This document shows, one piece after another, positions 1,185 to 36,903 of a stretch of 64,000 nucleotides of DNA; the first letter of the stretch is position 1; every line of letters begins with the position of its first letter. The notes under the pieces are model-generated. The model was not told where the DNA came from. It made no database searches and saw only the letters and a program-made list of their open reading frames with translations. Position numbers and translations under genes: made by a program. Origin of the DNA: Escherichia phage EI-SP-GF; sequence record OR992645.1; one strand, given 5' to 3'.

Positions 1185-1213
1185 TTGCCAATCTTAATTA
1201 GATGTGGTACAAT
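1185..1213 (+). promoter_or_regulatory. sigma70-like promoter (TTGCCA-N17-TACAAT, TGn extended -10) upstream of portal gene
   Basis: -35 ttgcca 1185-1190, 17-nt spacer ending tgg, -10 tacaat 1208-1213; member of a motif repeated 7 times in the structural block. Confidence 0.4.
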
Positions 1214-1231
1214 AAAGTAATTGGAGATACT

Positions 1232-1257
1232 AGCCCTCTGACGAGGGCTATTTTGTT
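1232..1257 (+). terminator. hairpin plus T-tract after terminase gene (lies in portal 5' leader)
   Basis: agccctc-tgac-gagggct stem-loop followed by attttgtt. Confidence 0.45.
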
Positions 1258-1281
1258 ATACTGTTTTGAGGGGTAAAGCTT

Positions 1282-2838
1282 GTGTCCAAAAAGAACCGCA
1301 GGAAACACAACGCCACAGCCAAAACTGTGAATAAATCTGGGAACGCAGGCGCACCAACTCATAATGTTCGTATGAGTGAGATCGGTTCTGGCGCACTTTC
1401 CCAAATTATGGCAGAATCGCAATCTATGATGGTTGAGGAATTGCGTTGGCCTCAGCTGATTGCCACAGTGGAGACTATGAAATGTGATTCCACAGTTGCT
1501 ACTGCCTTAGATACAAAATATGTTTTCATCACGAAAGCATTCAATGATTTTAAGATCCTTTATAATGTTAAAAGTGAAGACTCTAAGAAAGCTGCCGAGC
1601 TTATAGAGTATTCTTTGCGTAATTTGGCAAACCAACAAACTCTTCGAGATATTGCAAGAAGCGCAGCTACCTTTAACGAGTATGGTTTTTCACTGTTTGA
1701 GAAAGTATACCGCAGAGAGAAAGAAGGTAAATATGCCGGGATGCTTCTTATCGATAAAATTGCATTCCGACCTCAGGCCAGCCTGTCCAGATCAGAGCCG
1801 TTTGTTTTTGATAAGAATAGCAGAACACTGACAGGTATTTATCAGTCACCTAATGCATTTCTAAACACTCAGAATGCACGCTGGGCTGGACCTCTTGCTG
1901 CAATGCCTTCAAAAGGCTTTAATGAGCCTGAAATTTTCATCCCTGCTAAAAAGCTTATGCTCATGACCCTGTCAGGAACAGAATCTAACCCTGCAGGTGT
2001 GTCACCTATGATAGGTTGCTACAGATCTTTCCGTGAGAAAGTTCTGATTGAAAACCTTGAGGTTGTTGGCTGTTCCAAAGACCTTGGTGGTGTGCTTGAG
2101 CTGAAAATTCCTTCCAATATTTTGAACAAGGCCAGCATTGACCCGAATTCAATGGAAGGGAGAATGGTTGCAGACCTTATGCTTGACGCAGCAAACGCCC
2201 ATAGTGGTGAGCAAAGTTTCTTTATACTTCCGTCTGATAGAGATAAGTCTGGTAAAGAGCTTTACTCCATGACCCTGAAGGGGGTTGACGGTATGGGTAA
2301 GCAGTATTCCACTAAAGATTTGATTGATGCCCGTAAAAAGGCGATTCTTGACCGTTTCGGTGCTGGCTTTATTAACCTAGGTAACGATAACGTTGGATCC
2401 TTCTCTCTGTCTGAGTCAAAACAGTCTATCCATGGTCATTTTGTTCAGCGTGATATAGATATTATCACTGAGGCCTTCAATAAGGATCTTATTCCACAGC
2501 TTCTGGCATTGAATGGTATCATCCTTGAAGATGATGATATGCCTAAACTGAAACCTGGTCTGATTGAAGAAGTGGATATGGAGAGCTTCTCCAAGTTTGT
2601 CCAGAGGATCGGTGCTGTAGGTTACTTGCCAAAAACTCCTGCAGTAATTAATAAGATTCTTGAAGTAGGCGGGTTTGATGAAAGATTTGACGAGGACATG
2701 GATCAGGAAGAGCTGATGAAGCTCTTGGGCCAGGACATCAGTAGAGCTGGTGATGGAATGGCTGCAGGATCCACTGGCAACGGTACTTCTAAGATATCAT
2801 CAACCAGAGATAATTCCATATCCAACATGGAAAATTAA
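1282..2838 (+). CDS. portal protein
   Basis: 518-aa ORF, GTG start with gagggg RBS; size and position between terminase and scaffold/capsid genes. Confidence 0.6.
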   Translation: MSKKNRRKHNATAKTVNKSGNAGAPTHNVRMSEIGSGALSQIMAESQSMMVEELRWPQLIATVETMKCDSTVATALDTKYVFITKAFNDFKILYNVKSEDSKKAAELIEYSLRNLANQQTLRDIARSAATFNEYGFSLFEKVYRREKEGKYAGMLLIDKIAFRPQASLSRSEPFVFDKNSRTLTGIYQSPNAFLNTQNARWAGPLAAMPSKGFNEPEIFIPAKKLMLMTLSGTESNPAGVSPMIGCYRSFREKVLIENLEVVGCSKDLGGVLELKIPSNILNKASIDPNSMEGRMVADLMLDAANAHSGEQSFFILPSDRDKSGKELYSMTLKGVDGMGKQYSTKDLIDARKKAILDRFGAGFINLGNDNVGSFSLSESKQSIHGHFVQRDIDIITEAFNKDLIPQLLALNGIILEDDDMPKLKPGLIEEVDMESFSKFVQRIGAVGYLPKTPAVINKILEVGGFDERFDEDMDQEELMKLLGQDISRAGDGMAAGSTGNGTSKISSTRDNSISNMEN

Positions 2839-2905
2839 AAATTATCAACACAGGGGGTTGCAAAACCTCCTTTGGCGTGATAAAATAATCCACATGGGGA
2901 ATAAG

Positions 2906-3325
2906 ATGCCACAGGAAGAAATGATTTCCTACGAAATCATCTACGAGCCTGACACTAAAGATGCTCACGGTGAGTGGATGAGTAAAGACACCATCAAAAA
3001 GGCTAAAGATAACTGGGACGCAGCATACGCTGCAGGCCTAGTTTCTGAAAACCTTTTCCACTTGACCTCTACAGATGCTTTCACTATTGAAAAGACGTGG
3101 ATTCAAGAAGAGTTTGATGTTGTAGTAATTGGCACTGAGCAGGTCATCAAGGCTGGCTCTTGGGTTGCTAAAGTTAAATACAATAATCCTGAATTATGGG
3201 AAGCTAAGAAGGCTGGCATTGTTGGTGGCCTAAGCATTCAGGCAACAGGTAATGTTGATGAAGAAACTGGTGAAATTACCAACGTAAACTTCGGGATCAG
3301 TGTTGTAGAAGAGGGCAATGAATAA
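2906..3325 (+). CDS. head morphogenesis protein (possible prohead protease or scaffold-associated, XkdF-like guess)
   Basis: ORF in track begins 2750 but overlaps portal; in-frame ATG at 2906 (or 2894) after portal stop with GGGGA RBS; function inferred from position only. Confidence 0.35.
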   Translation: MPQEEMISYEIIYEPDTKDAHGEWMSKDTIKKAKDNWDAAYAAGLVSENLFHLTSTDAFTIEKTWIQEEFDVVVIGTEQVIKAGSWVAKVKYNNPELWEAKKAGIVGGLSIQATGNVDEETGEITNVNFGISVVEEGNE

Positions 3326-4302: not shown

Positions 4303-4322
4303 GACATTAACGGGGGAAATAA

Positions 4323-4712: not shown

Positions 4713-4759
4713 GCCCTAAATTGTTCGGGAAATATTTAAGTTTTACTTTGGAGAAATAA

Positions 4760-5767: not shown

Positions 5768-5791
5768 TCACTAAGGTGATTCATCCCATAT

Positions 5792-5824
5792 GGGGAGGGG
5801 GTTCTCCCCCTCCCCTTTTTATTT
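5792..5824 (+). terminator. rho-independent terminator after major capsid gene
   Basis: ggggaggggg-ttct-ccccctcccc perfect 10-bp stem followed by tttttattt. Confidence 0.75.
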
Positions 5825-5848
5825 ATTAGGGTTTAACAGGAGTGTCCC

Positions 5849-6676
5849 GTGAATAGAGCCGTGTATCCAGTCGAGTATGATCCTCTATTAAGAGTTTTCA
5901 ACAATCAGTTAAGTTTTTATCAATTTTTAGCACAATACAATCCAGAAATCAATGTTGGTTTATCAGCCCTACTGCCACCAACAGAATTCGTTATTGGCAG
6001 TGTCCACTATCCGTGCAGAACGATTGTAGACTTCTTCGAGAAGATTGCAAAACACACAGGCCTGCCAATTGATACTGGTATTTCAACTATCCGTATGGGT
6101 GTTATTCTTCTGTTCTTCACAGAGAACCTTGATGAAAGCACTTTAACACTGCAAAGCGGTGATGTCAATATCACACTCACCCCGTCAGTGTTTAAAGAGG
6201 TAGATGCGGCTTTCCAAGTTTCCGTGGCAGAGGGCCATCTATGGGACCCTGTAGGGATGCCTAAAAAAGTGACCATAAACGATGAGCAATGCAACATTGT
6301 TTATGAAGAAGATACCCAAACTTTCACCATTGAGTGGCCTAAGAAACGTTCTCAGGTTGTAAATCTTGGACTGGTGTCTACGATAGCTCCACCGCCTGAA
6401 CCAGAGCCGGAGCCGCCTGTAGGTCCTACTGAACCTGGTGGTGACGGTGAAGTTACTGTAGCAGATCCGCAAGATGTGACTGTATCCTCTTCCTCATTTG
6501 TAGCCGTTGAGAATAAGGATGAAATCCTTAAACAGGCCGCAGCTCTTAACAACGAAGATGACAAAAGTGGTTCAAAAGATGCACTCCAAACCTTCGCTAA
6601 AGAGTACGGTGTTACCTTAAGTAAGGCAAAAACTTTCCAAAATATGATGAAAGATTTTGAGGCTGCACTGGCATAA
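5849..6676 (+). CDS. hypothetical virion protein with Pro/Glu-rich linker
   Basis: 275-aa ORF, GTG start with AGGAG RBS; contains PPPEPEPEPPVGPTEPGGDGE linker. Confidence 0.5.
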   Translation: MNRAVYPVEYDPLLRVFNNQLSFYQFLAQYNPEINVGLSALLPPTEFVIGSVHYPCRTIVDFFEKIAKHTGLPIDTGISTIRMGVILLFFTENLDESTLTLQSGDVNITLTPSVFKEVDAAFQVSVAEGHLWDPVGMPKKVTINDEQCNIVYEEDTQTFTIEWPKKRSQVVNLGLVSTIAPPPEPEPEPPVGPTEPGGDGEVTVADPQDVTVSSSSFVAVENKDEILKQAAALNNEDDKSGSKDALQTFAKEYGVTLSKAKTFQNMMKDFEAALA

Positions 6677-6685
6677 TTTTGTTAA

Positions 6686-6720
6686 GGCCCCTTCCAAATC
6701 AGGAATGGGGCTTTATTTTT
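6686..6720 (+). terminator. weak hairpin plus T-tract
   Basis: ccccttcc-aaatca-ggaatgggg followed by ctttattttt. Confidence 0.35.
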
Positions 6721-6735
6721 ACGAGGTATTTTCAA

Positions 6736-7356
6736 ATGGCATGGTATGAAGATGAAGAGATTATCCCGTCACCGCCTAACCATGATGGTGTAGTCGATAC
6801 CCCAGAAGAACCACCAAAAGAAGATCCTGTGCCTCCGGAACCTGATCCAGACCAACCTCTTATTGATATTATGAGGTTATTGCTTGGCAATGTTGATGAG
6901 GAAACTCTCCCTGATGAGGTAATTAAAACATTCCTTGACATGGAGAAGTTGAAACTAAATTATCCGGCAGATCCTGATAAGCTACCTCTGCTTAAGTACA
7001 ATGTGCTTGTGCAACTTGTGCGGTGGCTGATGATGCAGGAAGTGTCCAGTGGTAATGCAAGTATAACTTCCCGTCTGGAAAAAATAGGTGATGAGACCAT
7101 AGAGATTCGTGGTGGATCTTCCTACGCCCAATGGAAGGATTTTCTTGATTGGCTGCTGGCACACCCAGACTATGTAGATTCTGAGTTAGATGCTTACAGC
7201 AGAATGATTATCATTGGTGGTGTTCGTGTAGACGAAGGAATTCGGGTTAAATTTAATGAAAACAGCAACGGACCGTTCGATGTCCAGGGGATTACACCTA
7301 TTAGTGGTCTAAATAATCAACCTCCTCGCCACCCAAGACGCAAACGCAGTTTTTAA
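6736..7356 (+). CDS. hypothetical structural protein (head-tail region)
   Basis: ORF frame opens 6679 but first 57 nt contain the terminator hairpin; in-frame ATG at 6736 (MAWYEDEE...) chosen. Confidence 0.45.
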   Translation: MAWYEDEEIIPSPPNHDGVVDTPEEPPKEDPVPPEPDPDQPLIDIMRLLLGNVDEETLPDEVIKTFLDMEKLKLNYPADPDKLPLLKYNVLVQLVRWLMMQEVSSGNASITSRLEKIGDETIEIRGGSSYAQWKDFLDWLLAHPDYVDSELDAYSRMIIIGGVRVDEGIRVKFNENSNGPFDVQGITPISGLNNQPPRHPRRKRSF

Positions 7357-7362
7357 AAATTG

Positions 7363-7391
7363 TTGCTTTTGATGTATCTTTGTGGTAAAAT
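7363..7391 (+). promoter_or_regulatory. sigma70-like promoter TTGCTT-N17-TAAAAT with TGn extended -10
   Basis: ttgctt 7363-7368, 17-nt spacer ending tgg, taaaat 7386-7391; RBS gaggaa and ATG 7410 follow. Confidence 0.45.
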
Positions 7392-7409: not shown

Positions 7410-7868
7410 ATGCTAAAGGTTAAATGTCAAACAAGGTTCAACCTAAAGCGTTTAGATCGCTTTTATAAAGACCTTGTGAAACTTGAAAGCAAAACAATAA
7501 CCTACGGCTTTTATGATGAACCTCACCCGTCAGGCTTAAATATGGCAACATTGGCAGCTATTCACAACTTCGGTTGGAACGGGCTGCCTGTTCGCAATTT
7601 CATGGAGACGGCCTTTGCATTTCACAGCACGCAACTACAGACCTTGACAGAAAAATTGTTGAGAGCTATGGCTAGAGGATCAAGTGCAGAGGCTGTTCTT
7701 AGACAGATGGGGGACACAGGGGCCAAAGCTATCCAGTTTGTTATTGAGGCTGGTCAGTTTAGTAACCCTACTGTTAGTGAGCAGTGGGCACAAGAGAAGG
7801 GCTTCAACGAGGCTATGCGGCATTACGATGTGCTGCTTGAATCTGCAACCTTTAAAATTGGACAGTAA
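7410..7868 (+). CDS. head-tail joining / neck protein (hypothetical)
   Basis: ORF in track starts GTG 7398; ATG 7410 has better RBS spacing; position between head and tail genes. Confidence 0.45.
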   Translation: MLKVKCQTRFNLKRLDRFYKDLVKLESKTITYGFYDEPHPSGLNMATLAAIHNFGWNGLPVRNFMETAFAFHSTQLQTLTEKLLRAMARGSSAEAVLRQMGDTGAKAIQFVIEAGQFSNPTVSEQWAQEKGFNEAMRHYDVLLESATFKIGQ

Positions 7869-8859: not shown

Positions 8860-8874
8860 TCGTTATAATTGTGT

Positions 8875-10792: not shown

Positions 10793-10810
10793 GAGCACAC
10801 TTCAGCATAA

Positions 10811-10841
10811 GCCTCACCTTCTGGTGGGGCTTTTTGCTTTT
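10811..10841 (+). terminator. rho-independent terminator after tube gene
   Basis: gcctcacc-ttct-ggtggggc stem-loop followed by tttttgctttt. Confidence 0.65.
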
Positions 10842-10882: not shown

Positions 10883-10911
10883 TTGACAATGCACCATAAT
10901 CATGGTAAAAT
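10883..10911 (+). promoter_or_regulatory. sigma70-like promoter TTGACA-N17-TAAAAT with TGn
   Basis: ttgaca 10883-10888, spacer 17 nt ending tgg, taaaat 10906-10911. Confidence 0.5.
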
Positions 10912-10954
10912 ACACAAATATGGTGCACAACATGACTAATAAGGATGCTATAAA

Positions 10955-11428
10955 ATGGCTATAAACTTTAGACCTACAACAGAGATTGACTTAGCAGGGC
11001 ACAACTTCGTGATCACCCACTGGGGGCCGATGAAGGCAATGAAAAATATGCCTAAGATTGGCAAGATTGTGGCTGTCCCGTTAGGTGCTATCGGTGGATC
11101 TATTATCTCAGGTGGTCAGAATATGGCTGAGGTTCTTCCTACTGCTCTGGCCTACCTGTTCCAGGAGCTTGATGACAACTCTATTGAAGAGTTGTTTAAA
11201 ATCTTGTTCGAAGATATTACTGTAGACGGTGTGGATAGGCTTAATCCAGATGTTGTGTTTGCAGGGCATCTGCTGGAGATGATTAAACTGGCAGGTAAGG
11301 TTCTGGAGGTTAACTACGGCTGTTTTTTCACACAAGACGGTTTAGGAAGCCTTCTGGAGATGTTACAGCAGATGGGTATGATTCAGCAGGTGAACAATCT
11401 GGATCAGACTCCGGAAGAGCAGGAATAA
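10955..11428 (+). CDS. tail assembly chaperone (short form)
   Basis: 157-aa acidic ORF between tube and tape measure genes. Confidence 0.6.
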   Translation: MAINFRPTTEIDLAGHNFVITHWGPMKAMKNMPKIGKIVAVPLGAIGGSIISGGQNMAEVLPTALAYLFQELDDNSIEELFKILFEDITVDGVDRLNPDVVFAGHLLEMIKLAGKVLEVNYGCFFTQDGLGSLLEMLQQMGMIQQVNNLDQTPEEQE

Positions 11429-11688: not shown

Positions 11689-11693
11689 TCTAA

Positions 11694-11730
11694 GGGCCGG
11701 ATTCCTTTTCTGGGATCTGGCCCTTTTTAT
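11694..11730 (+). terminator. imperfect hairpin plus T-tract
   Basis: gggccggattcc ... gggatctggccc followed by tttttatt. Confidence 0.4.
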
Positions 11731-11742
11731 TATGAGGAAAAC

Positions 11743-14082
11743 ATGGCTACAAATAAGATAGTTGCCACAACAGTCAACAAGATTGGCTTTGAGATAGAGA
11801 ACTCCTCCTACAAAAAAGCTGTAGAGAAAATTCGCAGTATCGGGAAGGAGTTCAGGAAACTGGGCGAGGATTTTAACTCAGCCAACCCTATGAGCAGATG
11901 GCAGGCAGTGGCTGTTAAAACTCAGCAGACAATGCAACGTGTTGCCAGACAGCAATCCCAAGCAAATGCTAAACTGCACAGGGAGAGCGTTGCTCAGGCC
12001 AAGAAAGAGGCTGCAGTAAAGGCTGCAATAGAGCGCAGGGAGAATGCAAGACGTAAGCAAGCTGTAGGCAATATTACCGCCAAAAACCCAGAGATGGCTA
12101 GGATGCGTAAGTTCTACCAGCAGCAAGCTAAAGAGGCCAAAAAAGCTGCCAAATCTGCACCAGTATCCTATGGTGGTTATAAGGCACCTAAGGCAAGAGT
12201 TCTTGCTAACGCCAAGTCTTTCAGATATATCCCAGGCAACCCTAACATGGGTGGGGTGGCTTCAGATCCTAATCTTGTGAAAGCCCAGACTGCTGCCATG
12301 AACCGTTATCACAGACAGTTAAGAAGGGACAGCAAAGCTGGGATGGATAATAGGCTTATGGCAGATCGTGAGGCAAGGAGAACCCACCTCTACAACTCTG
12401 CGATAAGACTTTCTGCCAAATATGGTGCCGGATTCCGTGGTAGTCTGTCTGGATATTCGGAGTTGGAGTCCAGATTTGCTCGCGGGGAAATGAGTAAGTC
12501 AACCTTTAACGCCCACCTGTCTGCGTTGCAGTCTGGGTTTAAAAGTGCCACCAGCCAAACTCTGACCCTCGGTGATGCTATGAGGGATTTGCGTAGATCT
12601 GTAATCAACGCTACAGCTGCGTATACCGCTTTTTCTGGATTTGCTGCAGTTAACAGATCCGGTCATATGATGGAGGGGGCAAGTGCTGCTCTTACTGCTG
12701 TTACTGGAGATCCAAACAAAGCCAACAGTGAAGTTGCGTTTGTCCAGCAGGAGGCTATGCGTCTTGGTTTTGACCTCAAGTCTGGTCTTCAGGGTTATTC
12801 TCAGATGGCGGTGAACGCCAAAAATCAGATGACAAACCAAGAGGTGCATGAGCTATTCTCTGCATACTCGCAGTATGCTGCTGCTTACGGTGCCGATGAG
12901 GTAAAATACCAGCGCGGTATTATGGCAATCCAGCAAATGCTCGGTAAAGGGCAAGTAATGTCCGAAGAACTGAAGCAACAACTTGCTGAAGCATTACCTG
13001 GTGCATACGAACCTTTTATCAAAGCTACCCAAGAGGCTTTTGGTCTTGCTGAGCTCTCCATGGATCAGTTCATGGATATGATGAAAAAAGGTGAAGTTAA
13101 AACAGCCAAGATCATGAAGTATGTGGCTAAGTACATGAATGAGGCATCTGCAGCTGGTTATGAAAGAATGCAGAAGTCTAACGTACTGGCAGAAAACAGA
13201 CTGAAAACCTTTATTGAACTGTCCCGTCAGAAACTGTTCACACGTTGGGCAGATGAGCTGACAGAGTTCTACTACACCTTAATCCGCACAGGTGAGACCC
13301 TGCAATTTGTGTGGGATGCCGCTGGTGATTTTGTTAGCGGGTTTGTGAGAGGTTTGAACTGGGTTGTTGGTGAACTAAACAACACTATAGTTAAGATCCG
13401 TTTGTTTTTCCTTGAATGGGGAATTAAATGGGGTATCATAACTGCTAAGACGAAGGAATATTCCGAAGAGATACATGACACCTTTAGCATGGCTAAATGG
13501 GCAGGGTATGCTGCTGCAATCATGCTGGTAGTGAACGCCCTTACCAAAGGGTTTGTTATGGCATCCATGCTTGTAAAAACATTTAAGTTCCTCAGCAACC
13601 TGAGAGGTGCAGCTGGAGCTGCAGGTGCTGGTGCAGTAACCGCAGACGGCTCTGGAGGAGGAGCAGCCGGAAAAGGTGGTGGAGGCATTAAGACGCCTGG
13701 CGGTAAAGTTGGCATTCTTGGCAAACTAGGTATCATTGGCACAATACTGAGTGCCGGAGAACTATTTAATGACCGTTTCAACCCGCTGAGTGAAAGAAAT
13801 CAACAGCTGGATACCATCAGCGATATGATTCGTAAAGACATCATATCTGGAGGTAACGGGTTTGTTGATCCTCTAAGCACCTTGCCGGGAGGTACTCTTC
13901 CGTTACCAGGTGGTCCTGGTTTTGCTTCTCAATTAAGAACCATGGAAATGCTACCTTTAGAGATCAGTGATGGTAAAATCACGATTTCAATAGATGAGGG
14001 TGAGTTTAGCAAAATATTTGATGCAAAACTTGAGTGGGAGAACAGTAAAGATATCAACTTTATGTCCACAGACCTTTGGTAA
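11743..14082 (+). CDS. tail tape measure protein
   Basis: 779 aa, long alpha-helical N-terminal half, Gly-rich segment GAAGAAGAGAVTADGSGGGAAGKGGGG, position after chaperone pair. Confidence 0.8.
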   Translation: MATNKIVATTVNKIGFEIENSSYKKAVEKIRSIGKEFRKLGEDFNSANPMSRWQAVAVKTQQTMQRVARQQSQANAKLHRESVAQAKKEAAVKAAIERRENARRKQAVGNITAKNPEMARMRKFYQQQAKEAKKAAKSAPVSYGGYKAPKARVLANAKSFRYIPGNPNMGGVASDPNLVKAQTAAMNRYHRQLRRDSKAGMDNRLMADREARRTHLYNSAIRLSAKYGAGFRGSLSGYSELESRFARGEMSKSTFNAHLSALQSGFKSATSQTLTLGDAMRDLRRSVINATAAYTAFSGFAAVNRSGHMMEGASAALTAVTGDPNKANSEVAFVQQEAMRLGFDLKSGLQGYSQMAVNAKNQMTNQEVHELFSAYSQYAAAYGADEVKYQRGIMAIQQMLGKGQVMSEELKQQLAEALPGAYEPFIKATQEAFGLAELSMDQFMDMMKKGEVKTAKIMKYVAKYMNEASAAGYERMQKSNVLAENRLKTFIELSRQKLFTRWADELTEFYYTLIRTGETLQFVWDAAGDFVSGFVRGLNWVVGELNNTIVKIRLFFLEWGIKWGIITAKTKEYSEEIHDTFSMAKWAGYAAAIMLVVNALTKGFVMASMLVKTFKFLSNLRGAAGAAGAGAVTADGSGGGAAGKGGGGIKTPGGKVGILGKLGIIGTILSAGELFNDRFNPLSERNQQLDTISDMIRKDIISGGNGFVDPLSTLPGGTLPLPGGPGFASQLRTMEMLPLEISDGKITISIDEGEFSKIFDAKLEWENSKDINFMSTDLW

Positions 14083-14091: not shown

Positions 14092-14120
14092 GTGGGGGCT
14101 TCTGGCCCCCTTTATTTTAT
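14092..14120 (+). terminator. rho-independent terminator after tape measure gene
   Basis: gggggc-ttctg-gccccc followed by tttatttta. Confidence 0.65.
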
Positions 14121-14125: not shown

Positions 14126-14154
14126 TTGTAAAAACGGCTATTTTATGATACAAT
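14126..14154 (+). promoter_or_regulatory. sigma70-like promoter TTGTAA-N17-TACAAT with TGn
   Basis: ttgtaa 14126-14131, 17-nt spacer ending tga, tacaat 14149-14154. Confidence 0.4.
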
Positions 14155-14187: not shown

Positions 14188-15072
14188 ATGCCAAGTAATA
14201 TAGTTGATGAAAAAGACCTGTACAAGCCTCAAGAGGTTAAATCTCCAAAGGCTGAAAAGGCAGAGCAGCAAACTGAAAGTGATGTAAAGTATACTATGTT
14301 TGTCAGCGGTCTTAACTACGGCGGTCGCAATATAGAGATGAAGGGTAAAAACTTCACTAACGACCTTGCCATTATCTTCGATCAGGTTGAGAATTATTCT
14401 TTTAAACAAACGGTCGATAAGTCAGATTTTGCAGTAGAAGATAAGTCTACCCTGTCAGACCATGCGGTGGTTAAGGATGGGGTATTTTCTTTCACTGGTC
14501 GGGTAAATACATCTCCTCATATAATTTATGAGCAAAACTACATTGATAGAAATACTGACTCCAAAAACCCTGCAGCGTCTATGCGACCTGGTGCGGCATT
14601 AGAAGCTTTGACAGAGATCATTAATAAGCGACAGTTGGTTTCTTTAGTTACCGAGGAGAGACTCCTTGAAAACTACATTATAACCAGTCTTTCTGCCAAC
14701 AAGTCTGTTGGTGAAGGTGCTGCAATGGTGTTTGATGTGGAACTTACAGAATTCCGCACATTCTACTTGAACAAGGTTGTTAATGCAACTGTATACAGCA
14801 ATCCTAAGAAGGTCGGTAAGACTCAACAAAAAGGTGCTGTCAACGATTGCAAGAATGGTAGTAACGTAGGTAACAAGAGAGACACAGGGGCATTTGCAGA
14901 CACCGCGTCCACAAATGCTGCAGAAGAGTGGCAGCCATACAAATCCATGATGTGGACAGATGAAAACGGTGTTACCCAATCAGCTGCAGATTGGTACTAT
15001 CAGGAATATGGAAGACCTTCCACCATAGTCCCATCTGAGCAGGGGAACTACAACAAAGTTAACGGAAAATAA
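14188..15072 (+). CDS. tail/baseplate assembly protein (post-tape-measure), function unknown
   Basis: ORF frame opens at 14161 but promoter -10 sits 6 nt upstream of that ATG; ATG 14188 has GGAG RBS. Confidence 0.45.
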   Translation: MPSNIVDEKDLYKPQEVKSPKAEKAEQQTESDVKYTMFVSGLNYGGRNIEMKGKNFTNDLAIIFDQVENYSFKQTVDKSDFAVEDKSTLSDHAVVKDGVFSFTGRVNTSPHIIYEQNYIDRNTDSKNPAASMRPGAALEALTEIINKRQLVSLVTEERLLENYIITSLSANKSVGEGAAMVFDVELTEFRTFYLNKVVNATVYSNPKKVGKTQQKGAVNDCKNGSNVGNKRDTGAFADTASTNAAEEWQPYKSMMWTDENGVTQSAADWYYQEYGRPSTIVPSEQGNYNKVNGK

Positions 15073-25001: not shown

Positions 25002-25030
25002 GCCCTCGCTTCGGCGGGGGCTTTTTGTTT
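25002..25030 (+). terminator. rho-independent terminator (UUCG-loop hairpin)
   Basis: gccctcgc-ttcg-gcgggggc followed by tttttgttt. Confidence 0.7.
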
Positions 25031-25033: not shown

Positions 25034-25062
25034 TTGCGTATTAACTCAAAATCTGGTAAAAT
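25034..25062 (+). promoter_or_regulatory. sigma70-like promoter TTGCGT-N17-TAAAAT with TGn
   Basis: ttgcgt 25034-25039, 17-nt spacer ending tgg, taaaat 25057-25062. Confidence 0.45.
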
Positions 25063-25093: not shown

Positions 25094-25684
25094 ATGTTTT
25101 TATGGGAAAGGCCTAGATACCTTCCAGATATTAGATTGGAGCTGCTGGCAGATATTGTTACGTTTAAAAGTCCGTTTACAGGTAAAACGCAAAAAGTGAC
25201 CTATGCCACACCTAACTGGAAAGGCACTTTGACGGTTTCCAATATCAGCGAGTCACAGTTGCTAGAGCTTAAGAGCTTTGTTGATCAGGTGTATAAAGAC
25301 GGGAACATTTTTCTTATTAAAACGTACGGTCACTCAGTAACAGCTAATGAGCCAATCGCCCTTGGGCCTACCGGTAACGACGATTTTTTGAAGACGGTCG
25401 GATGGGAGCCAAACAGAGACATAGCCAGAGCTGGGGATAAAATATCTGTTAACGATGAATTGAAAGTGGTAACAGCTCCAGTGCGCAGCGATGGTGTTGG
25501 GTCTGCTGTTATAAGCATATCTCCAAGACTTAGAAAACCTATTGCCGCAGGGGACACTATGAAGATAATAACTCAATCCCCAAAGGGTAGGTTTCATATC
25601 AGAGATATTTATAAAATTAAGCAAAAAGTCGATGCTATGCAAAAAGGTGATAATATAGTTATCAACTTCTTTGAGGATTTCTAA
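25094..25684 (+). CDS. tail tip assembly protein (lambda gpM / GTA g12 position, tentative)
   Basis: 196-aa ORF with GGAGG RBS, first gene of a four-gene run ending in the lambda J-like protein. Confidence 0.4.
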   Translation: MFLWERPRYLPDIRLELLADIVTFKSPFTGKTQKVTYATPNWKGTLTVSNISESQLLELKSFVDQVYKDGNIFLIKTYGHSVTANEPIALGPTGNDDFLKTVGWEPNRDIARAGDKISVNDELKVVTAPVRSDGVGSAVISISPRLRKPIAAGDTMKIITQSPKGRFHIRDIYKIKQKVDAMQKGDNIVINFFEDF

Positions 25685-30501: not shown

Positions 30502-30507
30502 CAGTAA

Positions 30508-30536
30508 AGCCCCGCTTCGGCGGGGTTTATTTTTAT
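30508..30536 (+). terminator. rho-independent terminator (UUCG-loop hairpin)
   Basis: gccccgc-ttcg-gcggggt followed by ttatttttat. Confidence 0.7.
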
Positions 30537-30543: not shown

Positions 30544-30572
30544 TTGACTATTGTTACAAAATTTGGTAAAAT
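30544..30572 (+). promoter_or_regulatory. sigma70-like promoter TTGACT-N17-TAAAAT with TGn
   Basis: ttgact 30544-30549, spacer 17 nt ending tgg, taaaat 30567-30572. Confidence 0.5.
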
Positions 30573-30605: not shown

Positions 30606-32096
30606 GTGGCTAAGTATGGATTGACAGAGGCTGGTTTCGTTATACCAACCCTAAATGACCTAATCGTTGAAACTAAGCAAAGCCTGATCCGTGCTTTTGG
30701 CGAAAACTTCAACGTACAGAGTAACTCCGTTGCAGATAAGCTGACCACTATCTTCAACGAGCGAGAGTATCAACTTATTCTTATGGCAGCATCTGTATAC
30801 GCATCGCAGACGCTGTATGGGGCAGAAGGTATTTACCTGGATGAGCTTCTTGGAAGACAGGGTATTTACCGAAGAGGCCGTTCTAAATCATCAGGTACCT
30901 GCCAGTTGACAATCAACACAACTGTGCCGTACAATATGATTTATGATTCCAAAACTTATACGCTGGACAGTGGCAACTTTGTTCTTAGCAACGATGTGCA
31001 GGTGGCGGGAAATCTTATTGCTCACAGAATAAACGCTCCAGACCTAAGAATTGGGAAATACAACTTTCAAATTACCAACCAGACAGACGGAAGTATCAAA
31101 ACAAAAAGTCTGGTTTTAACAGATAAGGCTCTGGACTCTTCTGATTTGCCAAGCTTTTACGGCGAGATTAAGCAATTCATTGTCGATAATACAACCCTGC
31201 TGAATGATGATTTAATTCAGATAGATATGTTGACAGGGACGTTGTGGATAGGGTACAATTCGAATCTTGATCAAGTTGGACTTAATAGCAGGGTAGATTT
31301 CAGAGTATCCCCGATTGTAGGGGAAAGAACTATCACCCTAGATGTTATCGCTAACGAGGCTGGTGAGCTGTCAAGAGAGGCAGAAACCGTGACAACAATG
31401 TCACCTACTCCCAGTGGATTTATCAAGCTTACCAACCGAGAAAGATTCAATGAGGGTAGGGATGTTGAGAAAGACTCTGAGTATCGCTTAAGAGCTTCCA
31501 GCACTAAACAGCTGACATCTAAAGCTACCCGTCCTGCAATCCTTAGCGCTGTAAGCGAGGTGAAAGGTGTTGAGAAAGTAAGAGTGTTCTCCAACAACAC
31601 CGATAAAACGGATGCGAAAGGTATACCACCTTATAAGTTTCAAGTGGTGGTGTTTGGTGGTGCAACAGAGGATATCTGTCAGGCGCTGTATCAAACCATA
31701 GCTTGCACAAACAGAACTTATGGGAATATCTTCTACGATATTACCACATCAGACGGTCAGACTGAAAGGATTTATTACTCCAAGGCAAATACCTACCGCC
31801 TAGATGTAAGAATTACCTACTCAGGTGCTGCGCTTTCCACAACCGAAAAAGATGCCATTGTAGAGGCTCTTTTACAGGTTGTTAACGGACTGGATGTTGC
31901 AGATACGTTGTACAATATCCAATTGGTTGGTGCTGCATCAGCTGCTGTGTCAATAGGCAGATTTAACAGACTTGTGATTCAAGTAAAACCTGTGGGAGCC
32001 TCTGATGAAGCTTACACTACAAACGATATTGTTGCAAACATGACTGAGGTGTTTGACCTAGACGAAAGTAATATAACTTTCCAACAAACTATTTAA
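30606..32096 (+). CDS. baseplate J-like wedge protein (P2 gpJ / T4 gp6 family, tentative)
   Basis: 496 aa, GTG start with GGAGG RBS; C-terminal half shows the same pattern as P2 gpJ (alternating hydrophobic strands, ...YNIQLVGAA...); followed by gpI-like gene. Confidence 0.45.
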   Translation: MAKYGLTEAGFVIPTLNDLIVETKQSLIRAFGENFNVQSNSVADKLTTIFNEREYQLILMAASVYASQTLYGAEGIYLDELLGRQGIYRRGRSKSSGTCQLTINTTVPYNMIYDSKTYTLDSGNFVLSNDVQVAGNLIAHRINAPDLRIGKYNFQITNQTDGSIKTKSLVLTDKALDSSDLPSFYGEIKQFIVDNTTLLNDDLIQIDMLTGTLWIGYNSNLDQVGLNSRVDFRVSPIVGERTITLDVIANEAGELSREAETVTTMSPTPSGFIKLTNRERFNEGRDVEKDSEYRLRASSTKQLTSKATRPAILSAVSEVKGVEKVRVFSNNTDKTDAKGIPPYKFQVVVFGGATEDICQALYQTIACTNRTYGNIFYDITTSDGQTERIYYSKANTYRLDVRITYSGAALSTTEKDAIVEALLQVVNGLDVADTLYNIQLVGAASAAVSIGRFNRLVIQVKPVGASDEAYTTNDIVANMTEVFDLDESNITFQQTI

Positions 32097-32794: not shown

Positions 32795-34866
32795 TGGCAA
32801 CAGCTGTTTTTAAACCTTACCGTGATTACTCTACAATGGCTGCACGGTTTCATTACCGCACAGTTCAGGATACTGCAGTTCCGGGTAGGGATTATGATCA
32901 TGTTGAGGGCGATGTAACTATCCCGGTTGGGGCAACCAGTATTGAGATCCCTGTAGAAATTGTTGACAAATTGCCAAACAGGTTGCCAAGAAGCTTCTTT
33001 ATGGAGTTTTCATCAAACTCCCAAGGGGTTATGATTGGAACACAAAGAGCGAAATGTACAATAGTTTCAGATGAGAATCTTGACAGAATATCTTGGGATA
33101 CCGTTGAGGAGAGAATGTTTCACCCAAGATACTGGGTTACAACCACACAGCAGACTGAAAGCACCTGTATTGTTGCGGATAATAACTGCTGTATTAACCG
33201 TTTAGTGTCAAGAACATATGGGGGCATGGCTGGGTGCATTTGGGAAACAGTTGACAAGTATGACCATTTCGGCATTGGATTTGATGATCACTACGAGATG
33301 AGAAACACCAAGCTTTGGTTCAGAATGTCAATAACCAATGCCAGCAACTTCTCCACCCCTGAAAAGATGATTATGACTGTAGACCTTGTTGATGGTACAA
33401 TCATCTATGTTCCTTTAGCTCAATATGCTGTCAGCATCTCAGAGGATAAGAATGTTGCAGAAATTCATATTGATTTCGAGGACTGCGTCGGGATGGACCA
33501 GAACAACAACATGATGGGTGTTGATCCTCGGCAGGTGAGAAGGATTCTAATACCACTTATGCCTAAAGATTGGGTAGGTAATAGCACAGACCCGAGAACG
33601 GAAAATGTAGAGTGTGAGTTGCGTCTAGATCTTCTTCAGCCGGACACAGGCTGGAAAATGATGCAACTTAACAATATTCAGGTGAAAGAACACGATGTTG
33701 GGATCTGCACAGCATATGACGATATGTGGAACGTATCCCCTTTAAGGGTGTTGAGCAATATCAAGCGTCTGGGCTATACAGGAACCATAAACCATTATGT
33801 TGGTATGAGCCATTATTATGACTACACATGGTCAGGAACCCAATGGTCTATAAACAAAACAGGAGCTCTAAACGCTGCAGCTTATAAATGGCATGATGAT
33901 TTTATGTACAATGCCAAACGACATGACTTCGACGTTATGCAGTCTGTAAGCTTTGAGCTTTATAGCGATGCCTGTCCGTTGGAATGGACCCAGAGAGACT
34001 GGAACGATAACTATGCTAAAACAGGCTATACGCCTTGTAGTTACCTCCTGTCTCCAACCATTGAAGAGGGCATGAATTTCCTTACTGCAGTATTTAAGAA
34101 TTTTGCATCAGCCGCTATGAGAAACAACCTGCCAGTGATTATGCAGATTGGTGAACCGTGGTGGTGGTTCAATACCGATACTCGTAAGCCTTGTATTTAT
34201 GACTACCCTACAAAGCAGGCGTTTTATGATGAGACTGGTGAATATGCACTAGACATTGGGACTATTGACGATCCTAAAACTGGCGGTGTTTATGACAAGT
34301 ATGTAGCATTTTGTCGTGGTAAGCTTGGCGCTCGTATTGCAGCCATTTCAAAGGCAATAAAAGCACACGCTGCATCGGCTCAGATGACAGCTTTACTGTT
34401 TTTCCCCACTATTATGGAAACCGAGCTTACGCAAAAACTGAACCTTGCTGACCAATATAAAAAGGAAGCAGGTGCTCTTGATTTCTTCTGCACTGAGTGC
34501 TACGATTGGGTGATGCAGGGAGGTATTGAAAAGGCAAAAGAGTCTGTAAACATACCTATCGTTAAGTTAGGTTGGAAACCGTCTGAAATACAATACCTTG
34601 CAGGGTTCGTTCCTAGCAAAGAGCTTGCTCCGGTATATGGCTACGACCCAACCAGGAATTACCAAGAATTTTTATGGAGATGTATTTGCGGAAACATGGC
34701 AACCATAGAGTATAGATACCCTGAGGTAAAACAGTATGTGTGGGCATACCCGCAAGTAATGTCTGACAGCATCACTGTTACCGCCAGAGATTCTACTGTT
34801 CTGCATATGGGGCAGGTTGCTCTGAAAGGGTATGTAGAAGATGTTGTTCCGCCAGACTTCTCATAA
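32794..34866 (+). CDS. tail-associated protein with N-terminal Calx-beta-like domain and large C-terminal domain (possible glycoside hydrolase / TIM-barrel)
   Basis: N-terminus VPGRDYDHVEGDVTIPVGATSIEIPVEIVD resembles Calx-beta motif; C-terminal region Trp-rich (GEPWWWF); enzymatic role is inference. Confidence 0.45.
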   Translation: MATAVFKPYRDYSTMAARFHYRTVQDTAVPGRDYDHVEGDVTIPVGATSIEIPVEIVDKLPNRLPRSFFMEFSSNSQGVMIGTQRAKCTIVSDENLDRISWDTVEERMFHPRYWVTTTQQTESTCIVADNNCCINRLVSRTYGGMAGCIWETVDKYDHFGIGFDDHYEMRNTKLWFRMSITNASNFSTPEKMIMTVDLVDGTIIYVPLAQYAVSISEDKNVAEIHIDFEDCVGMDQNNNMMGVDPRQVRRILIPLMPKDWVGNSTDPRTENVECELRLDLLQPDTGWKMMQLNNIQVKEHDVGICTAYDDMWNVSPLRVLSNIKRLGYTGTINHYVGMSHYYDYTWSGTQWSINKTGALNAAAYKWHDDFMYNAKRHDFDVMQSVSFELYSDACPLEWTQRDWNDNYAKTGYTPCSYLLSPTIEEGMNFLTAVFKNFASAAMRNNLPVIMQIGEPWWWFNTDTRKPCIYDYPTKQAFYDETGEYALDIGTIDDPKTGGVYDKYVAFCRGKLGARIAAISKAIKAHAASAQMTALLFFPTIMETELTQKLNLADQYKKEAGALDFFCTECYDWVMQGGIEKAKESVNIPIVKLGWKPSEIQYLAGFVPSKELAPVYGYDPTRNYQEFLWRCICGNMATIEYRYPEVKQYVWAYPQVMSDSITVTARDSTVLHMGQVALKGYVEDVVPPDFS

Positions 34867-34878
34867 TCAGGAGATAAA

Positions 34879-35919
34879 ATGTCAAAACCTAGTTTTCCAT
34901 TAGAGATTTGGGCAGAGGAGGATCAGGTTCTGCCTAACACCCACAGACAGAACAGGCTACGCCCGATTGATGATTTGTGGAGAAAAGGTTGGGATCTTGG
35001 TCAAAAGCCGTCATGTGAAGAACTTAACTATATTTTCAATATGCTCGGGACTTGGGCAAAATATATTGCTGACGAGCAGATCCCCGCCCAAGAGGGCCGT
35101 TATCTGGTACGTGATAATAACCTGAGCGATCTTCTGAACATTCCTGTCGCCCGTAGAAACCTTGGGATTATTACTAAGGAAGAGGCAGACGCCAGGTATG
35201 TAAAAGTTACAGGAGATACAATGACAGGCCCCTTAGGTTTGCAGCGTATCAACTTTAAAGCTGCCGAGACAGATAAGGCTTGGATAGAGACAACTATTGG
35301 TCCAGATAAGACAACTCTCGACTTTGGGTTAAGTGATAACACTGGGGCGTTTGATGATGGTGGCACATCTACAGTAGATGCGTTTCGTTGGAGATTCCAG
35401 CCAACTCAGCCAGACATTAATCCAGAGTTCACTTTGATGTACCTGAACGCGATCACGGCTAACCGTGCGCTGTTGAAAGTGGTAGGTAATGTTGAAGTTG
35501 TCGATAACATGCGGTGTAACAACCTTACCATCAGCAGCACAGCAACATTCACCAACTGTAATGTGGCTAGTCAGTTGACAGCTGGGTCCGTATATGTTAA
35601 TGGCGGCGCAAGTTGTGACAGTATGGTTGTAAGAAGCCAGCATTGTGTTGTCGGTAACAGAAATGTGGTGCGCTCTGTGAATGGAGTGACGGCTAACGGT
35701 AACGGCGATGTAACGATCACCATCCCGCAGACAGGGGTACAGGATATCAGAATCGGTGCAAGACTTGTTGATGGTGTTTCTGAATCTCCAGTTCGCAACG
35801 GCTACGTTGTCACAGGTTGGCATTTTGGTGATAAAAAAGAGATGCGTGGTTCAACCTACTGGGCAGGACCTTTACAAAAACTTGTAAATGGTCAATGGAT
35901 CACTGTTAATTATGCGTAG
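34879..35919 (+). CDS. tail fibre protein (short fibre, copy 1)
   Basis: 346 aa; TGDTMTGPL fibre motif; paralogous to 36935-37978; followed by Tfa chaperone. Confidence 0.7.
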   Translation: MSKPSFPLEIWAEEDQVLPNTHRQNRLRPIDDLWRKGWDLGQKPSCEELNYIFNMLGTWAKYIADEQIPAQEGRYLVRDNNLSDLLNIPVARRNLGIITKEEADARYVKVTGDTMTGPLGLQRINFKAAETDKAWIETTIGPDKTTLDFGLSDNTGAFDDGGTSTVDAFRWRFQPTQPDINPEFTLMYLNAITANRALLKVVGNVEVVDNMRCNNLTISSTATFTNCNVASQLTAGSVYVNGGASCDSMVVRSQHCVVGNRNVVRSVNGVTANGNGDVTITIPQTGVQDIRIGARLVDGVSESPVRNGYVVTGWHFGDKKEMRGSTYWAGPLQKLVNGQWITVNYA

Positions 35920-35933
35920 ATCGGAGGACTAGC

Positions 35934-36518
35934 ATGAAAATACTTCAAGAGTTTAAACTTTACCAACCGGGATCTGGCGAATACTACACCAACAAGGAGA
36001 CCAAGGAGCTGACTCCTCAGGAGGTTGAGGATTACACAGCATACACTGGATATTTTTTACGTAATGATGATGGCGATTGGTATGTGCAATCACGAACACT
36101 GCGACAAGAAAATCCCGGCTGTATCTTCTTACTTGTTGACGAGAAGGGTATTCTTAAGACATCTACAGAAGAACCTGATGCCTTGTGGCCTGCTCCAGGT
36201 CTTCGTGTGGTTATCGCCAAAAAAGAAGAGGTACCAGAAAACATTATGCTCCACCACGACGCTTTGCGTTTAGTTGGTGATGAATTTGTCACAGACAATG
36301 AATTCTTTGTTCAACAGGCAGAGGGTGTCATAGAGACAGAACTTGCTTGGGCTACTGCTAGAATTGGTGCCTATCAAGACATGATTGACCTTGAATACGA
36401 TCTTACTGATGACCAAAAACGCAACATCAGAGATTTGAAAATGTACAGGGTAAAACTTCTTGAAATAGATACATCTAAAGCCCCTGACATTTTCTTCCCG
36501 GAACGACCTACCCTCTAA
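35934..36518 (+). CDS. tail fibre assembly protein (Tfa / P2 gpG-like chaperone)
   Basis: C-terminal motif QKRNIRDLKMYRVKLLEIDTSKAPDIFFPERP matches the conserved Tfa C-terminal signature (..YR..L..vDts.APdI.WP..P). Confidence 0.75.
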   Translation: MKILQEFKLYQPGSGEYYTNKETKELTPQEVEDYTAYTGYFLRNDDGDWYVQSRTLRQENPGCIFLLVDEKGILKTSTEEPDALWPAPGLRVVIAKKEEVPENIMLHHDALRLVGDEFVTDNEFFVQQAEGVIETELAWATARIGAYQDMIDLEYDLTDDQKRNIRDLKMYRVKLLEIDTSKAPDIFFPERPTL

Positions 36519-36529
36519 GAGGAGGTGTT

Positions 36530-36844
36530 GTGGAGTTGGATTTGGCGGCATTGTACGGTATCTGCATGGGTACCGTTGTCCCGATCTGTGTATGGGCTTT
36601 CAACCAGTGGCACACCAAATGGAAAGGTATTTCCAAGAGGTTGGATGAGCTGGAGAAAGACCTCATTTTAGTGAAAAATAGCATGGTTACAAAAGATAGA
36701 CTTGATTCCATTATCGAGACCCGGTTAAGTAAGCTAGAGGCCGATATTAACGACCTTAAGCAAGATGTCAGGACAGATGTCTCCGGTATCCGAGCTGATG
36801 TACAAAAGATTTTGCACATGCTTGTAGAGCATAGTAAAAGGTAA
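36530..36844 (+). CDS. small membrane protein with N-terminal TM helix and coiled coil (holin/spanin-like candidate)
   Basis: 104 aa, GTG start with AAGAGGAGG RBS; hydrophobic LAALYGICMGTVVPICVWAF then charged coiled-coil. Confidence 0.4.
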   Translation: MELDLAALYGICMGTVVPICVWAFNQWHTKWKGISKRLDELEKDLILVKNSMVTKDRLDSIIETRLSKLEADINDLKQDVRTDVSGIRADVQKILHMLVEHSKR

Positions 36845-36874
36845 ACAAAGGTAAGAACGGTAAGGATGCCGTTC

Positions 36875-36903
36875 TTGCATTTTGTTCTCTAAAGTGTTAA
36901 AAT
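36875..36903 (+). promoter_or_regulatory. sigma70-like promoter TTGCAT-N17-TAAAAT with TGn, overlapping a weak upstream hairpin (36855-36874)
   Basis: ttgcat 36875-36880, 17-nt spacer ending tgt, taaaat 36898-36903. Confidence 0.45.

Follow-up and report, generated by a model that had tools for sequence, protein, structure and literature searches.

The window considered here, a 64,000-nucleotide stretch of Escherichia phage EI-SP-GF DNA (sequence record OR992645.1), is Vequintavirus DNA, i.e. that of an rV5-like E. coli myovirus, and is 93-96% identical to rV5-like genomes over the late-promoter region. Its late module covers 45.7 kb, of which ~1.1 kb (roughly 2.4%) is intergenic. Eight putative promoters split this head and tail module of ~45 kb, giving eight units. 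Seven of these sites, at positions 1185, 7363, 10883, 14126, 25034, 30544 and 36875, had been proposed in the original prediction, and all seven match the pattern TTGNNN-N17-TA[A/C]AAT on the plus strand; a search of the window added a further site of the same form at 2858. All eight are intergenic, lie on the plus strand in the orientation of the genes that they precede, and end (last base of the -10) 18-68 nt before a start codon with a Shine-Dalgarno sequence. Intergenic DNA is AT-rich.

Organization of the eight sites

The first site (1185..1213, plus strand), TTGCCA-17-(TGG)TACAAT, precedes the portal gene, which starts with GTG at 1282. It corresponds to rV5 P064 and to an annotated promoter of phage Gotham, and its orthologues in Gotham and Bas59 have TAGAAT as the -10. 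A terminator-like hairpin (1231..1250, plus strand; TAGCCCTC-tgac-GAGGGCTA followed by TTTTGTT), which is rV5 t064ABC (Table S4D), lies 3' of this site within the portal leader; the other leaders are unstructured. The second site (2858..2886, plus strand), TTGCAA-17-(TGA)TAAAAT, is located 19 nt before the ATG of the prohead protease gene at 2906 and heads the operon protease-scaffold-decoration-major capsid; it is likewise annotated in Gotham, and its TTGCAAAA and TGnTAAAATAA are kept across four genera. The third site (7363..7391, plus strand; rV5 P056), TTGCTT-17-(TGG)TAAAAT, lies 18 nt before the ATG at 7410 and heads the neck and tail-completion genes followed by those for sheath and tube.

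Each of the remaining five sites has an intrinsic terminator just upstream, on the same strand. The terminator at 10809..10832 (rV5 t052) follows the tail tube gene and lies 50 nt upstream of the site at 10883..10911 (plus strand; rV5 P051), TTGACA-17-(TGG)TAAAAT, which is 43 nt before the ATG at 10955 and whose -10 is flanked by a 9-nt inverted repeat (10890-10898, 10919-10927). The terminator at 14094..14110 (rV5 t049) follows the tape-measure gene, 15 nt upstream of the site at 14126..14154 (plus strand; rV5 P048), TTGTAA-17-(TGA)TACAAT; 33 nt further on, the ATG at 14188 opens an operon for the tail-tube initiator, the baseplate hub and two large fibre genes. The terminator at 25002..25021 (rV5 t041), GCCCTCGCttcgGCGGGGGC with a T-run, is 12 nt upstream of the site at 25034..25062 (plus strand; rV5 P040, annotated in Gotham), TTGCGT-17-(TGG)TAAAAT, located 31 nt before the ATG at 25094. 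The terminator at 30507..30528 is 15 nt upstream of the site at 30544..30572 (plus strand; rV5 P036), TTGACT-17-(TGG)TAAAAT, located 33 nt before the GTG at 30606 of a baseplate protein operon. Finally, the 3' arm of a stable hairpin at 36851..36878 (plus strand; -17.3 kcal/mol, z = -6.1), which is followed by ATTTTGTT, overlaps the -35 TTGC of the site at 36875..36903 (plus strand; rV5 P030), TTGCAT-17-(TGT)TAAAAT; this site lies 31 nt before the ATG at 36935 and serves the short tail fibre and distal fibre genes.

Several details of the original prediction are refined by this inventory. The core tggTAAAAT, said to be common to five sites, is present in four of the seven (7363, 10883, 25034 and 30544), the others being TGGTACAAT at 1185, TGATACAAT at 14126 and TGTTAAAAT at 36875. 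The proposed distance of 45-70 nt fits six of the seven, with 47-72 nt from the start of the motif to the start codon, but not the site at 1185, with 97 nt; counted from the last base of the -10, the distance is 18-43 nt and, for 1185, 68 nt. A terminator hairpin just upstream, described as usual, was found at 10883, 14126, 25034, 30544 and 36875, while at 1185 the hairpin is located downstream, in the leader, and none was found at 7363 or just upstream of the additional site at 2858.

Non-random occurrence and conservation across genera

In the alignment of the eight sites, the only conserved columns are TTG of the -35, TG at positions -15/-14 and TA.AATA, with a spacer of 17 bp. The -10 hexamer is TAAAAT or TACAAT in every site, i.e. 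it matches TATAAT at 5 of 6 positions with invariant A at -11 and T at -7, and both the TG and an A at -6 are found in all eight. The -35 elements match TTGACA at 3-6 of 6 positions. The 10-mer TGNTAMAATA has nine plus-strand matches in the window, eight of which are intergenic within the late module (binomial p≈1e-12). TTG occurs exactly 17 bp upstream in all eight intergenic matches, with a chance of ~0.017 per site.

Repeats of this kind could in principle be non-functional and arise merely from the AT-richness of intergenic DNA or from the T-tracts of terminators, as five of the eight sites adjoin terminator T-runs. However, the pattern TTGNNN-N17-TA[A/C]AAT was counted 11 times in the window versus 1.73 expected by chance, and none of 100 dinucleotide-preserving shuffles reached this count. 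Also against a by-product are the exact register of TTG, TG and hexamer in all eight sites, the strand bias of TGNTANAAT in the late module (16 plus-strand versus 1 minus-strand occurrence), and the conservation of the boxes, but not of the spacers, across genera. Six other gaps of the late module, including the terminator-bearing gaps at 5768-5848 and 11689-11742, lack the motif. The by-product reading is refuted as far as sequence analysis reaches, and we assign it a practically negligible probability.

Within the genus, the gaps of the window, Gotham and Bas59 hardly differ and therefore have no discriminating power, so the comparison was made across genera. Seunavirus, Mydovirus and Certrevirus retain the extended -10 element at orthologous gaps, although their spacers have diverged. 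Sites orthologous to 7363 were found in SSE121, VLCpiM5a, KaOmega and POP18, and in the same four phages TGATAAAAT or TGCTAAAAT is located 3' of the tape-measure terminator, orthologous to the site at 14126. At two orthologous positions in other genera the -35 TTG is replaced by TTT, as at the extended -10 elements orthologous to 30544 in SSE121, VLCpiM5a and KaOmega. The window was also scanned with a weight matrix for which only sites of Seunavirus, Mydovirus and Certrevirus had been used. Among about 128,000 positions, the eight sites took ranks 1-7 and 9, with 7363 as the best match (31.5 bits), 36875 scoring 27.3 bits and 1185 in the 9th place; seven sites in the window scored at or above 15 bits versus 0-1 in shuffled windows. 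In a sample of Vequintavirinae-like portal-protease gaps from IMG/VR, drawn through the protease protein rather than through the motif, TTGnnn-17-TGnTAnAAT was present in 19 of 19 gaps, 16-20 nt before the start codon.

The eight sites are very probably functional extended -10 promoters read directly by host sigma-70 RNA polymerase. They carry the hexamer, the TG, a partial -35 at the appropriate spacing, and an intergenic co-oriented placement expected of such promoters, and 9-11 of their 12 hexamer positions agree with the host consensus, in addition to the TG. In silico, the proposal that sigma-70-like promoters head the structural operons finds good support in statistics, strand, position and cross-genus conservation. 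In the predicted mechanism, TGnTA(A/C)AATA would be contacted by sigma regions 2.4 and 3.0, and the partial -35 (TTGnnn) 17 bp upstream by region 4. At five of the eight sites transcription would restart just after an intrinsic terminator, and the leaders would be short, about 12-36 nt, given a start ~7 nt after the -10. Both the firing of the eight sites and its timing are what we infer here; together, the sites would constitute the late promoter class of the phage.

Late and early promoter classes

Late and early promoters differ statistically as classes, the early class being characterized by perfect TTGACA and a variable -10. In the complete genome of Bas59, the 10-mer occurs 11 times, always on the plus strand; nine occurrences are intergenic and seven lie ahead of late operons, while none was found in the 34-kb leftward DNA-metabolism cluster. 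Two late-type motifs fall outside the structural module, and the genes behind them give no functional clue. The early-class candidates of Bas59, located in early regions, have spacers of 16-18 bp, variable -10 hexamers and TG in ~38%, and in this last feature the two classes overlap. Perfect TTGACA is found in 1 of 8 late versus 33 of 56 early promoters (p=0.02), and TA[AC]AAT in 7 of 8 versus 6 of 56 (p=2e-5), with only 2 such -10 elements (TA[A/C]AATA type) among the 29 perfect-TTGACA early promoters. TG is present in 8 of 8 late promoters versus 11 of these 29. The split between perfect TTGACA with a variable -10 and a weak -35 with an invariant TGnTA(A/C)AATA is kept in Vequintavirus, Seunavirus, Mydovirus and Certrevirus. 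Early promoters previously described for Vequintavirinae (rV5 Table S4A; Certrevirus AAAA-N3-TGTTGAC-N19-TATAAT, PMC7344957) are likewise of host type and come from the same phages, but sit in early regions, whereas the class reported here sits in the structural module.

The original prediction had offered two alternatives: either the modules are transcribed constitutively, or a regulator acts on the motif. Regarding the latter, an inverted-repeat search around the promoters gave only site-specific repeats, none of them common to the set, and a column-conservation profile of the eight sites from -75 to +38 revealed no extra conserved box; hence there is no sign of a regulator that would bind DNA and recognize the motif. 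No Rfam match was obtained in the window. The frequent TTGC of the -35 was also considered as a trace of a MotA box, and this reading was rejected: TGCTT is found only in 7363, at -34 to -30, in the wrong register, and not in the other -35 hexamers (TTGCCA, TTGCAA, TTGACA, TTGTAA, TTGCGT, TTGACT and TTGCAT). In T4 middle promoters, which depend on MotA and AsiA, the MotA box (a/t)(a/t)(a/t)TGCTT(t/c)A has its centre at -30, with ~12 bp between box and -10 (PMC3950348). The 'putative transcriptional regulator' of Bas59 was discarded as a late regulator, as it matches a replication-initiator-like HTH family.

If transcription is constitutive, the sites would be ordinary sigma-70 promoters whose initiation is not timed. 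The structural genes would then be transcribed from the beginning of infection, and late output would come to dominate through template multiplication and decay of early transcripts. The good match to the host consensus, the lack of a further conserved operator or activator site and of a recognisable dedicated late regulator agree with this account, as does the argument of the rV5 authors that sigma-70-like promoters found genome-wide speak against modification of the polymerase (PMC3606486). It leaves unexplained why late promoters avoid the consensus -35, why their TG is constant and their TA[AC]AAT nearly so, and why the same split is upheld in four genera. Moreover, early expression of dozens of virion proteins would be atypical for large lytic phages. 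We regard constitutive transcription as a real possibility, one held at well under even confidence.

The systematic difference between late and early promoters leaves room for regulation via RNA polymerase rather than via DNA. The account of timing that we prefer, tentatively and at somewhat less than an even chance, is a class switch, in which an early phage product would weaken initiation that depends on the -35 and region 4, so that TTGACA-dependent early promoters would be silenced while the -35-independent extended -10 promoters would stay active. More specifically, the two classes may reflect a switch, so far undescribed, by which rV5-like phages act on the polymerase: an early protein that shows no detectable AsiA or gp39 homology would disable -35/region-4 recognition; this is a rather doubtful conjecture at present. 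Such a switch would turn off host promoters together with the phage's own early promoters and pass E. coli RNA polymerase to the extended -10 late class. The conservation of the -35 TTG at exactly 17 bp suggests that region 4 is still used, which is awkward for a switch acting purely by region-4 displacement, although two orthologous positions carry TTT in other genera.

No AsiA- or gp39-like protein was identified, and the sole candidate in the window is the product of an Srd-like ORF (51431-52486, minus strand), the first leftward early gene, which is possibly the switch protein. Its weak PHROG matches are phrog_4592 (8e-13) and phrog_1400 (6e-10), the labels being 'decoy of host sigma70' and 'Srd'; the PHROG family that it matches best carries the label HNH endonuclease, and no Pfam domain was found. 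A second 'anti-sigma factor' of related records was rejected: it belongs to the DUF2201/VWA proteins and has a MoxR ATPase as its partner, and its label was probably transferred. In the literature, we found no transcription-start, transcript-mapping or time-course data for Vequintavirinae phages; in one candidate transcriptome paper, the sequenced phage turned out to be T5-like.

Phages of the rV5 type find wide use against E. coli, Salmonella and Klebsiella, both in phage therapy and in biocontrol cocktails, and knowledge of what drives their virion genes aids annotation, reporter-phage design and engineering. The additions made here are modest: a better fit to sigma-70 extended -10 promoters than to T4-like late promoters, conservation in four genera, and separation from the early class. 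This separation gives a concrete, cheaply testable hypothesis for late timing in a phage with neither its own polymerase nor its own sigma factor.

Comparison with known systems

The sites are already known: the 2013 description of rV5 gives them, with the consensus TggTAaAAtA, as its putative late promoters (Table S4C in Additional file 4 of Kropinski et al. 2013, Virol J 10:76; PMC3606486), and the GenBank record of phage Gotham marks promoters at the orthologous positions. No other description of the motif was found in the literature. As the motif is the very element that the rV5 authors had named a putative late promoter, a late promoter is not lacking, contrary to the framing of the original prediction. 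The seven rV5 elements equated above with window sites are near-identical to them in sequence, and two, P036 and P051, are also listed among the sigma-70 promoters of that paper. The rV5 list differs in several respects: it lacks the protease-proximal site (window 2858), includes a weak eighth site, P055 (TGGTAGAAGA), with no counterpart in the window, gives the P048 sequence out of register, and reports the motif without the -35 TTG or the 17-bp spacing.

The same authors liken the motif to the T4 late consensus TATAAATA, which raises the possibility that a gp55-like or sigma-like phage factor, instead of sigma-70, reads TggTAaAAtA. The motif is almost wholly confined to late operons, and its -10 (TA[A/C]AATA) is unusually fixed and rare among early promoters; with T4 late promoters, which depend on gp55, gp33 and gp45, it shares an A/T-rich -10-region element ahead of virion genes. 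The likeness is unsupported by the present tests. A single copy of TATAAATA was counted in the window, versus 1.9 expected, and it lies within a gene on the minus strand; the consensus is absent from the late gaps and matches none of the eight sites. The TG at -15/-14 and the TTG 17 bp upstream, both invariant in register, are contacted by sigma-70 and have no equivalent in T4 late promoters, and at the orthologous gaps of more distant relatives full TTGACA-17-TAnnnT promoters are found. The rV5 paper reports no homologues of gp33, gp45 or gp55 (PMC3606486), and the curated annotation of Bas59 contains neither a sigma factor nor homologues of these proteins. A T4-type late promoter was rejected on these grounds, and a phage factor of this kind is improbable; the motif fits the sigma-70 extended -10 type.

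Like the extended -10 (TGn) promoters of E. coli, the phage sites have TG one base before TAnnnT, a partial -35 and a 17-bp spacer. They differ from the E. coli set in being unusually uniform (TA[A/C]AAT followed by A at -6, the third base of the hexamer never being T) and in serving, as an entire class, a single functional module.

A further parallel is provided by gp39 of Thermus phage P23-45 and AsiA of T4, small phage proteins that displace or remodel sigma region 4, with extended -10 promoters escaping their action (PMC3950348). The systems have in common a phage that lacks its own polymerase, late genes behind extended -10 promoters, and competing promoters of the -10/-35 class; in rV5-like phages this arrangement is seen as TG in 8 of 8 late promoters with a weak -35, versus perfect TTGACA in 33 of 56 early ones. 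The two-class pattern is consistent with a switch that, in the manner of these proteins, blocks recognition of the -35, without proving one. The late promoters of P23-45 have no -35, while those of Vequintavirus keep the TTG in 8 of 8, and it is only partly lost in other genera. Unlike in the P23-45 and AsiA systems, the -10/-35 class to be silenced in rV5-like phages would include the phage's own early promoters.

Predicted extended -10 promoters ahead of the structural units

Many Vequintavirus genomes (rV5-like E. coli myoviruses) match the whole length of the window at 92-96% identity, and the window is collinear with the BASEL phage Bas59 (EduardKellenberger, MZ501061), whose curated annotation was used as the gene map. 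The late module (window 1-45.7 kb, + strand) comprises genes for the large terminase, portal, prohead protease, scaffold, decoration protein, major capsid protein, neck and tail proteins, sheath, tube, tape measure, baseplate, and a long tail-fibre series. The remainder contains a leftward early cluster (45.8-52.5 kb) and a rightward early cluster (52.5-64 kb) with rIIA/B, helicase, and other genes. In GenBank, 16-18 "Campylobacter phage" records (MG0656xx) that give Campylobacter jejuni as host share 92-94% identity with this E. coli Vequintavirus window over tens of kb; their host assignment looks doubtful.

The original prediction proposed seven TTGnnn-N17-(TGn)TA[A/C]AAT promoters heading structural operons, and all seven sites exist. 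The pattern TTG-N20-TA[A/C]AAT occurs 11 times in the window versus 1.73 expected, a count reached by no shuffle; eight of these matches, on the + strand within 1-37 kb, are the seven claimed sites and one more of the same form at 2858. These eight late sites, all on the + strand, precede the following units: portal (1185); protease to major capsid protein (2858); neck genes to tail tube (7363); two small genes, then the tape measure behind an internal terminator (10883); tail-tube initiator, baseplate hub, and two fibre genes (14126); and three baseplate/fibre units (25034, 30544, and 36875). The core tggTAAAAT, said to be shared by five sites, is found in four of the seven. Motif start and start codon, proposed to be 45-70 nt apart, are separated by 47-72 nt at six of the seven and by 97 nt at 1185. 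A terminator-like hairpin lies upstream, as described, at 10883, 14126, 25034, 30544, and 36875; at 1185 it is 3' of the site, and 7363, like the additional site 2858, has none. The interpretation as a whole is supported in part, namely for sigma-70-type promoters ahead of structural units.

In each of the eight late sites -15/-14 is TG and -6 is A, and the column profile of the aligned sites from -75 to +38 contains only TTG, TG, and TA.AATA as conserved columns. The 10-mer TGNTAMAATA has nine + strand matches, eight of them in intergenic late-module DNA (~1.1 kb, 2.4%; p≈1e-12), each with TTG exactly 17 bp 5' of the hexamer. A weight matrix was built solely from sites of other genera, SSE121 (Seunavirus), VLCpiM5a (Mydovirus), and KaOmega and POP18 (Certrevirus-like). 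Among ~128,000 positions on both strands it ranked the eight window sites, all intergenic and on the + strand, 1-7 and 9, which argues that the motif is not a circular construct; seven sites scored at least 15 bits in the real window versus 0-1 in shuffled windows. In the complete Bas59 genome TGNTAMAATA occurs 11 times, always on the + strand (9 intergenic, 7 ahead of late operons), and its count in the 34-kb leftward DNA-metabolism cluster is 0.

Judged from the alignment, the conserved positions (-35 TTG, 17-bp spacer, TG at -15/-14, A at -11, and T at -7) are the exact sigma-70 contacts, and the late sites are classified as predicted extended -10 promoters. Direct recognition by the sigma-70 holoenzyme is the best-supported reading and is very probably correct. 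Recognition in the manner of T4 late promoters fails, since TATAAATA is missing from the late gaps, T4 late promoters lack the -35 and TG elements that the window sites carry, and no homologues of gp33, gp45, or gp55 were reported in the rV5 paper (Kropinski et al., 2013). A MotA-box reading was also rejected on comparison of the aligned sites.

Leaders, repeats, and terminators in the late module

Within the leader of promoter 1185, ahead of the portal start codon (1282), lie a terminator-like hairpin (1231-1250) and then a T-run; in Nernie (phi92-like) and ukendt (phAPEC8-like) the portal gene is likewise preceded by a promoter and then a leader hairpin. The 1231-1250 hairpin could lower portal expression by attenuation, make the mRNA more stable, or be the terminase terminator set after the next promoter. 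At 10883 the -10 element is flanked by a perfect 9-nt inverted repeat, TGCACCATA / TATGGTGCA (10890-10898 / 10919-10927). In phi92-like and more distant relatives (L007, 21558-21653; L074-L088) the -10 of the portal→protease promoter lies between inverted repeats followed by a T-run, and the repeat changes in sequence while its complementarity stays (AAATATCC..GGATATTT versus TATATCCTAT..ATAGGATATA). An operator, a terminator overlapping the promoter, and a processing site are possible functions.

Strong terminators, 5792-5815 (gap 5768-5848) and 11692-11725 (gap 11689-11742), lie directly ahead of the genes at 5849-7356 and of the tape-measure gene (11743-14082), respectively, and these genes have no recognisable promoters of their own. 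Their transcription presumably relies on read-through of the terminators, possibly as a dosage device. The tail sheath gene is preceded by a gap with a perfect TATAAT (8864-8869) that lacks TG and has a poor -35; TGGTAGAAGA, the weak "P055" motif of rV5, is absent from this gap. In the late module (window 1-45700) the coding strand has 16 copies of TGNTANAAT and the opposite strand one, with ~4-5 expected per strand; antisense extended -10 promoters may have been selected against.

Conservation in related genera and earlier predictions

In four Vequintavirinae genera the extended -10 element is retained, with diverged spacer and flanks, in the orthologous gaps between portal and protease, upstream of the tail-completion genes, behind the tape-measure terminator, and upstream of the baseplate operon. 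The portal→protease gap keeps both TTGCAAAA and TGnTAAAATAA across genera; in the post-tape-measure and baseplate gaps TTT replaces the -35 TTG in some genera. In an IMG/VR sample drawn via the protease protein, and so not conditioned on the motif, TTGnnn-17-TGnTA[A/G]AAT was found 16-20 nt 5' of the start codon in 19 of 19 distinct Vequintavirinae-like upstream regions; lineages with abutting portal and protease genes have no such site. The more distant relatives Nernie and ukendt possess full TTGACA-17-TAnnnT promoters at the corresponding gaps, which points to host-type promoters within the structural module as an old trait of the supergroup. The Certrevirus literature describes an early promoter only (PMC7344957).

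The late sites are already known as predictions and are ordinary in kind. The seven originally noted correspond to P064, P056, P051, P048, P040, P036, and P030 of rV5 (Kropinski et al., 2013, Table S4C); P036 and P051 are also in the rV5 sigma-70 promoter list, and the same paper describes extended -10 regions in 11 of 33 promoters. Promoters at orthologous positions, 2858 included, are annotated in the GenBank record of phage Gotham. Those of rV5 and Gotham are predictions throughout, and the literature yielded neither 5'-end maps nor a time-course transcriptome for any phage of this subfamily. The present analysis adds site 2858, the eighth, upstream of the operon of head genes; the assignment of the -35 TTG and fixed 17-bp spacer to the motif; its conservation over four genera; and a quantitative contrast between late and early classes in Bas59.

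Late and early promoter classes

In Bas59, perfect TTGACA is present in 1 of 8 late versus 33 of 56 early promoters (p=0.02), whereas TA[AC]AAT is present in 7 of 8 versus 6 of 56 (p=2e-5); TG occurs in all 8 late promoters versus 11 of 29 early promoters with perfect TTGACA. Two further late-type motifs (~23187 and ~35174) lie in the Bas59 early region, outside the window: TTGTAA-17-TGCTAAAATA ahead of bas59_0084/0085, and TGTTAAAATA, which lacks a -35, ahead of bas59_0115, downstream of a putative holin. The genes behind these motifs may be expressed late although they lie within the early cluster.

The timing of the late sites is inferred. They may simply be constitutive promoters, with an output that rises with genome copy number, an account only slightly less likely than the switch considered next. 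The systematic split between classes would be expected from an early phage product that impairs initiation dependent on -35/region 4, and such a switch is plausible, if tentative. Two observations count against it: the -35 TTG is kept in the late sites, and no identifiable effector was found. The sole candidate in the window is an Srd-like product (51431-52486, -), which matches PHROG families weakly and has no Pfam domain; its likeness to Srd is distant, and its best PHROG family is labelled HNH endonuclease. Divergent early promoters lie at ~52.49-52.56 kb (52490-52560). Several GenBank records give the name "anti-sigma factor" to the two genes that open the leftward early operon (49937-52486, -). 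The product of the one that is not Srd-like is a DUF2201 metallopeptidase/VWA protein; since 55055-56239 codes for a MoxR-type ATPase, the label looks like annotation transfer. An early product of the proposed kind would spare the extended -10 class, as do T4 AsiA and P23-45 gp39, which weaken -35/region-4-dependent initiation and leave extended -10 promoters active (PMC3950348).
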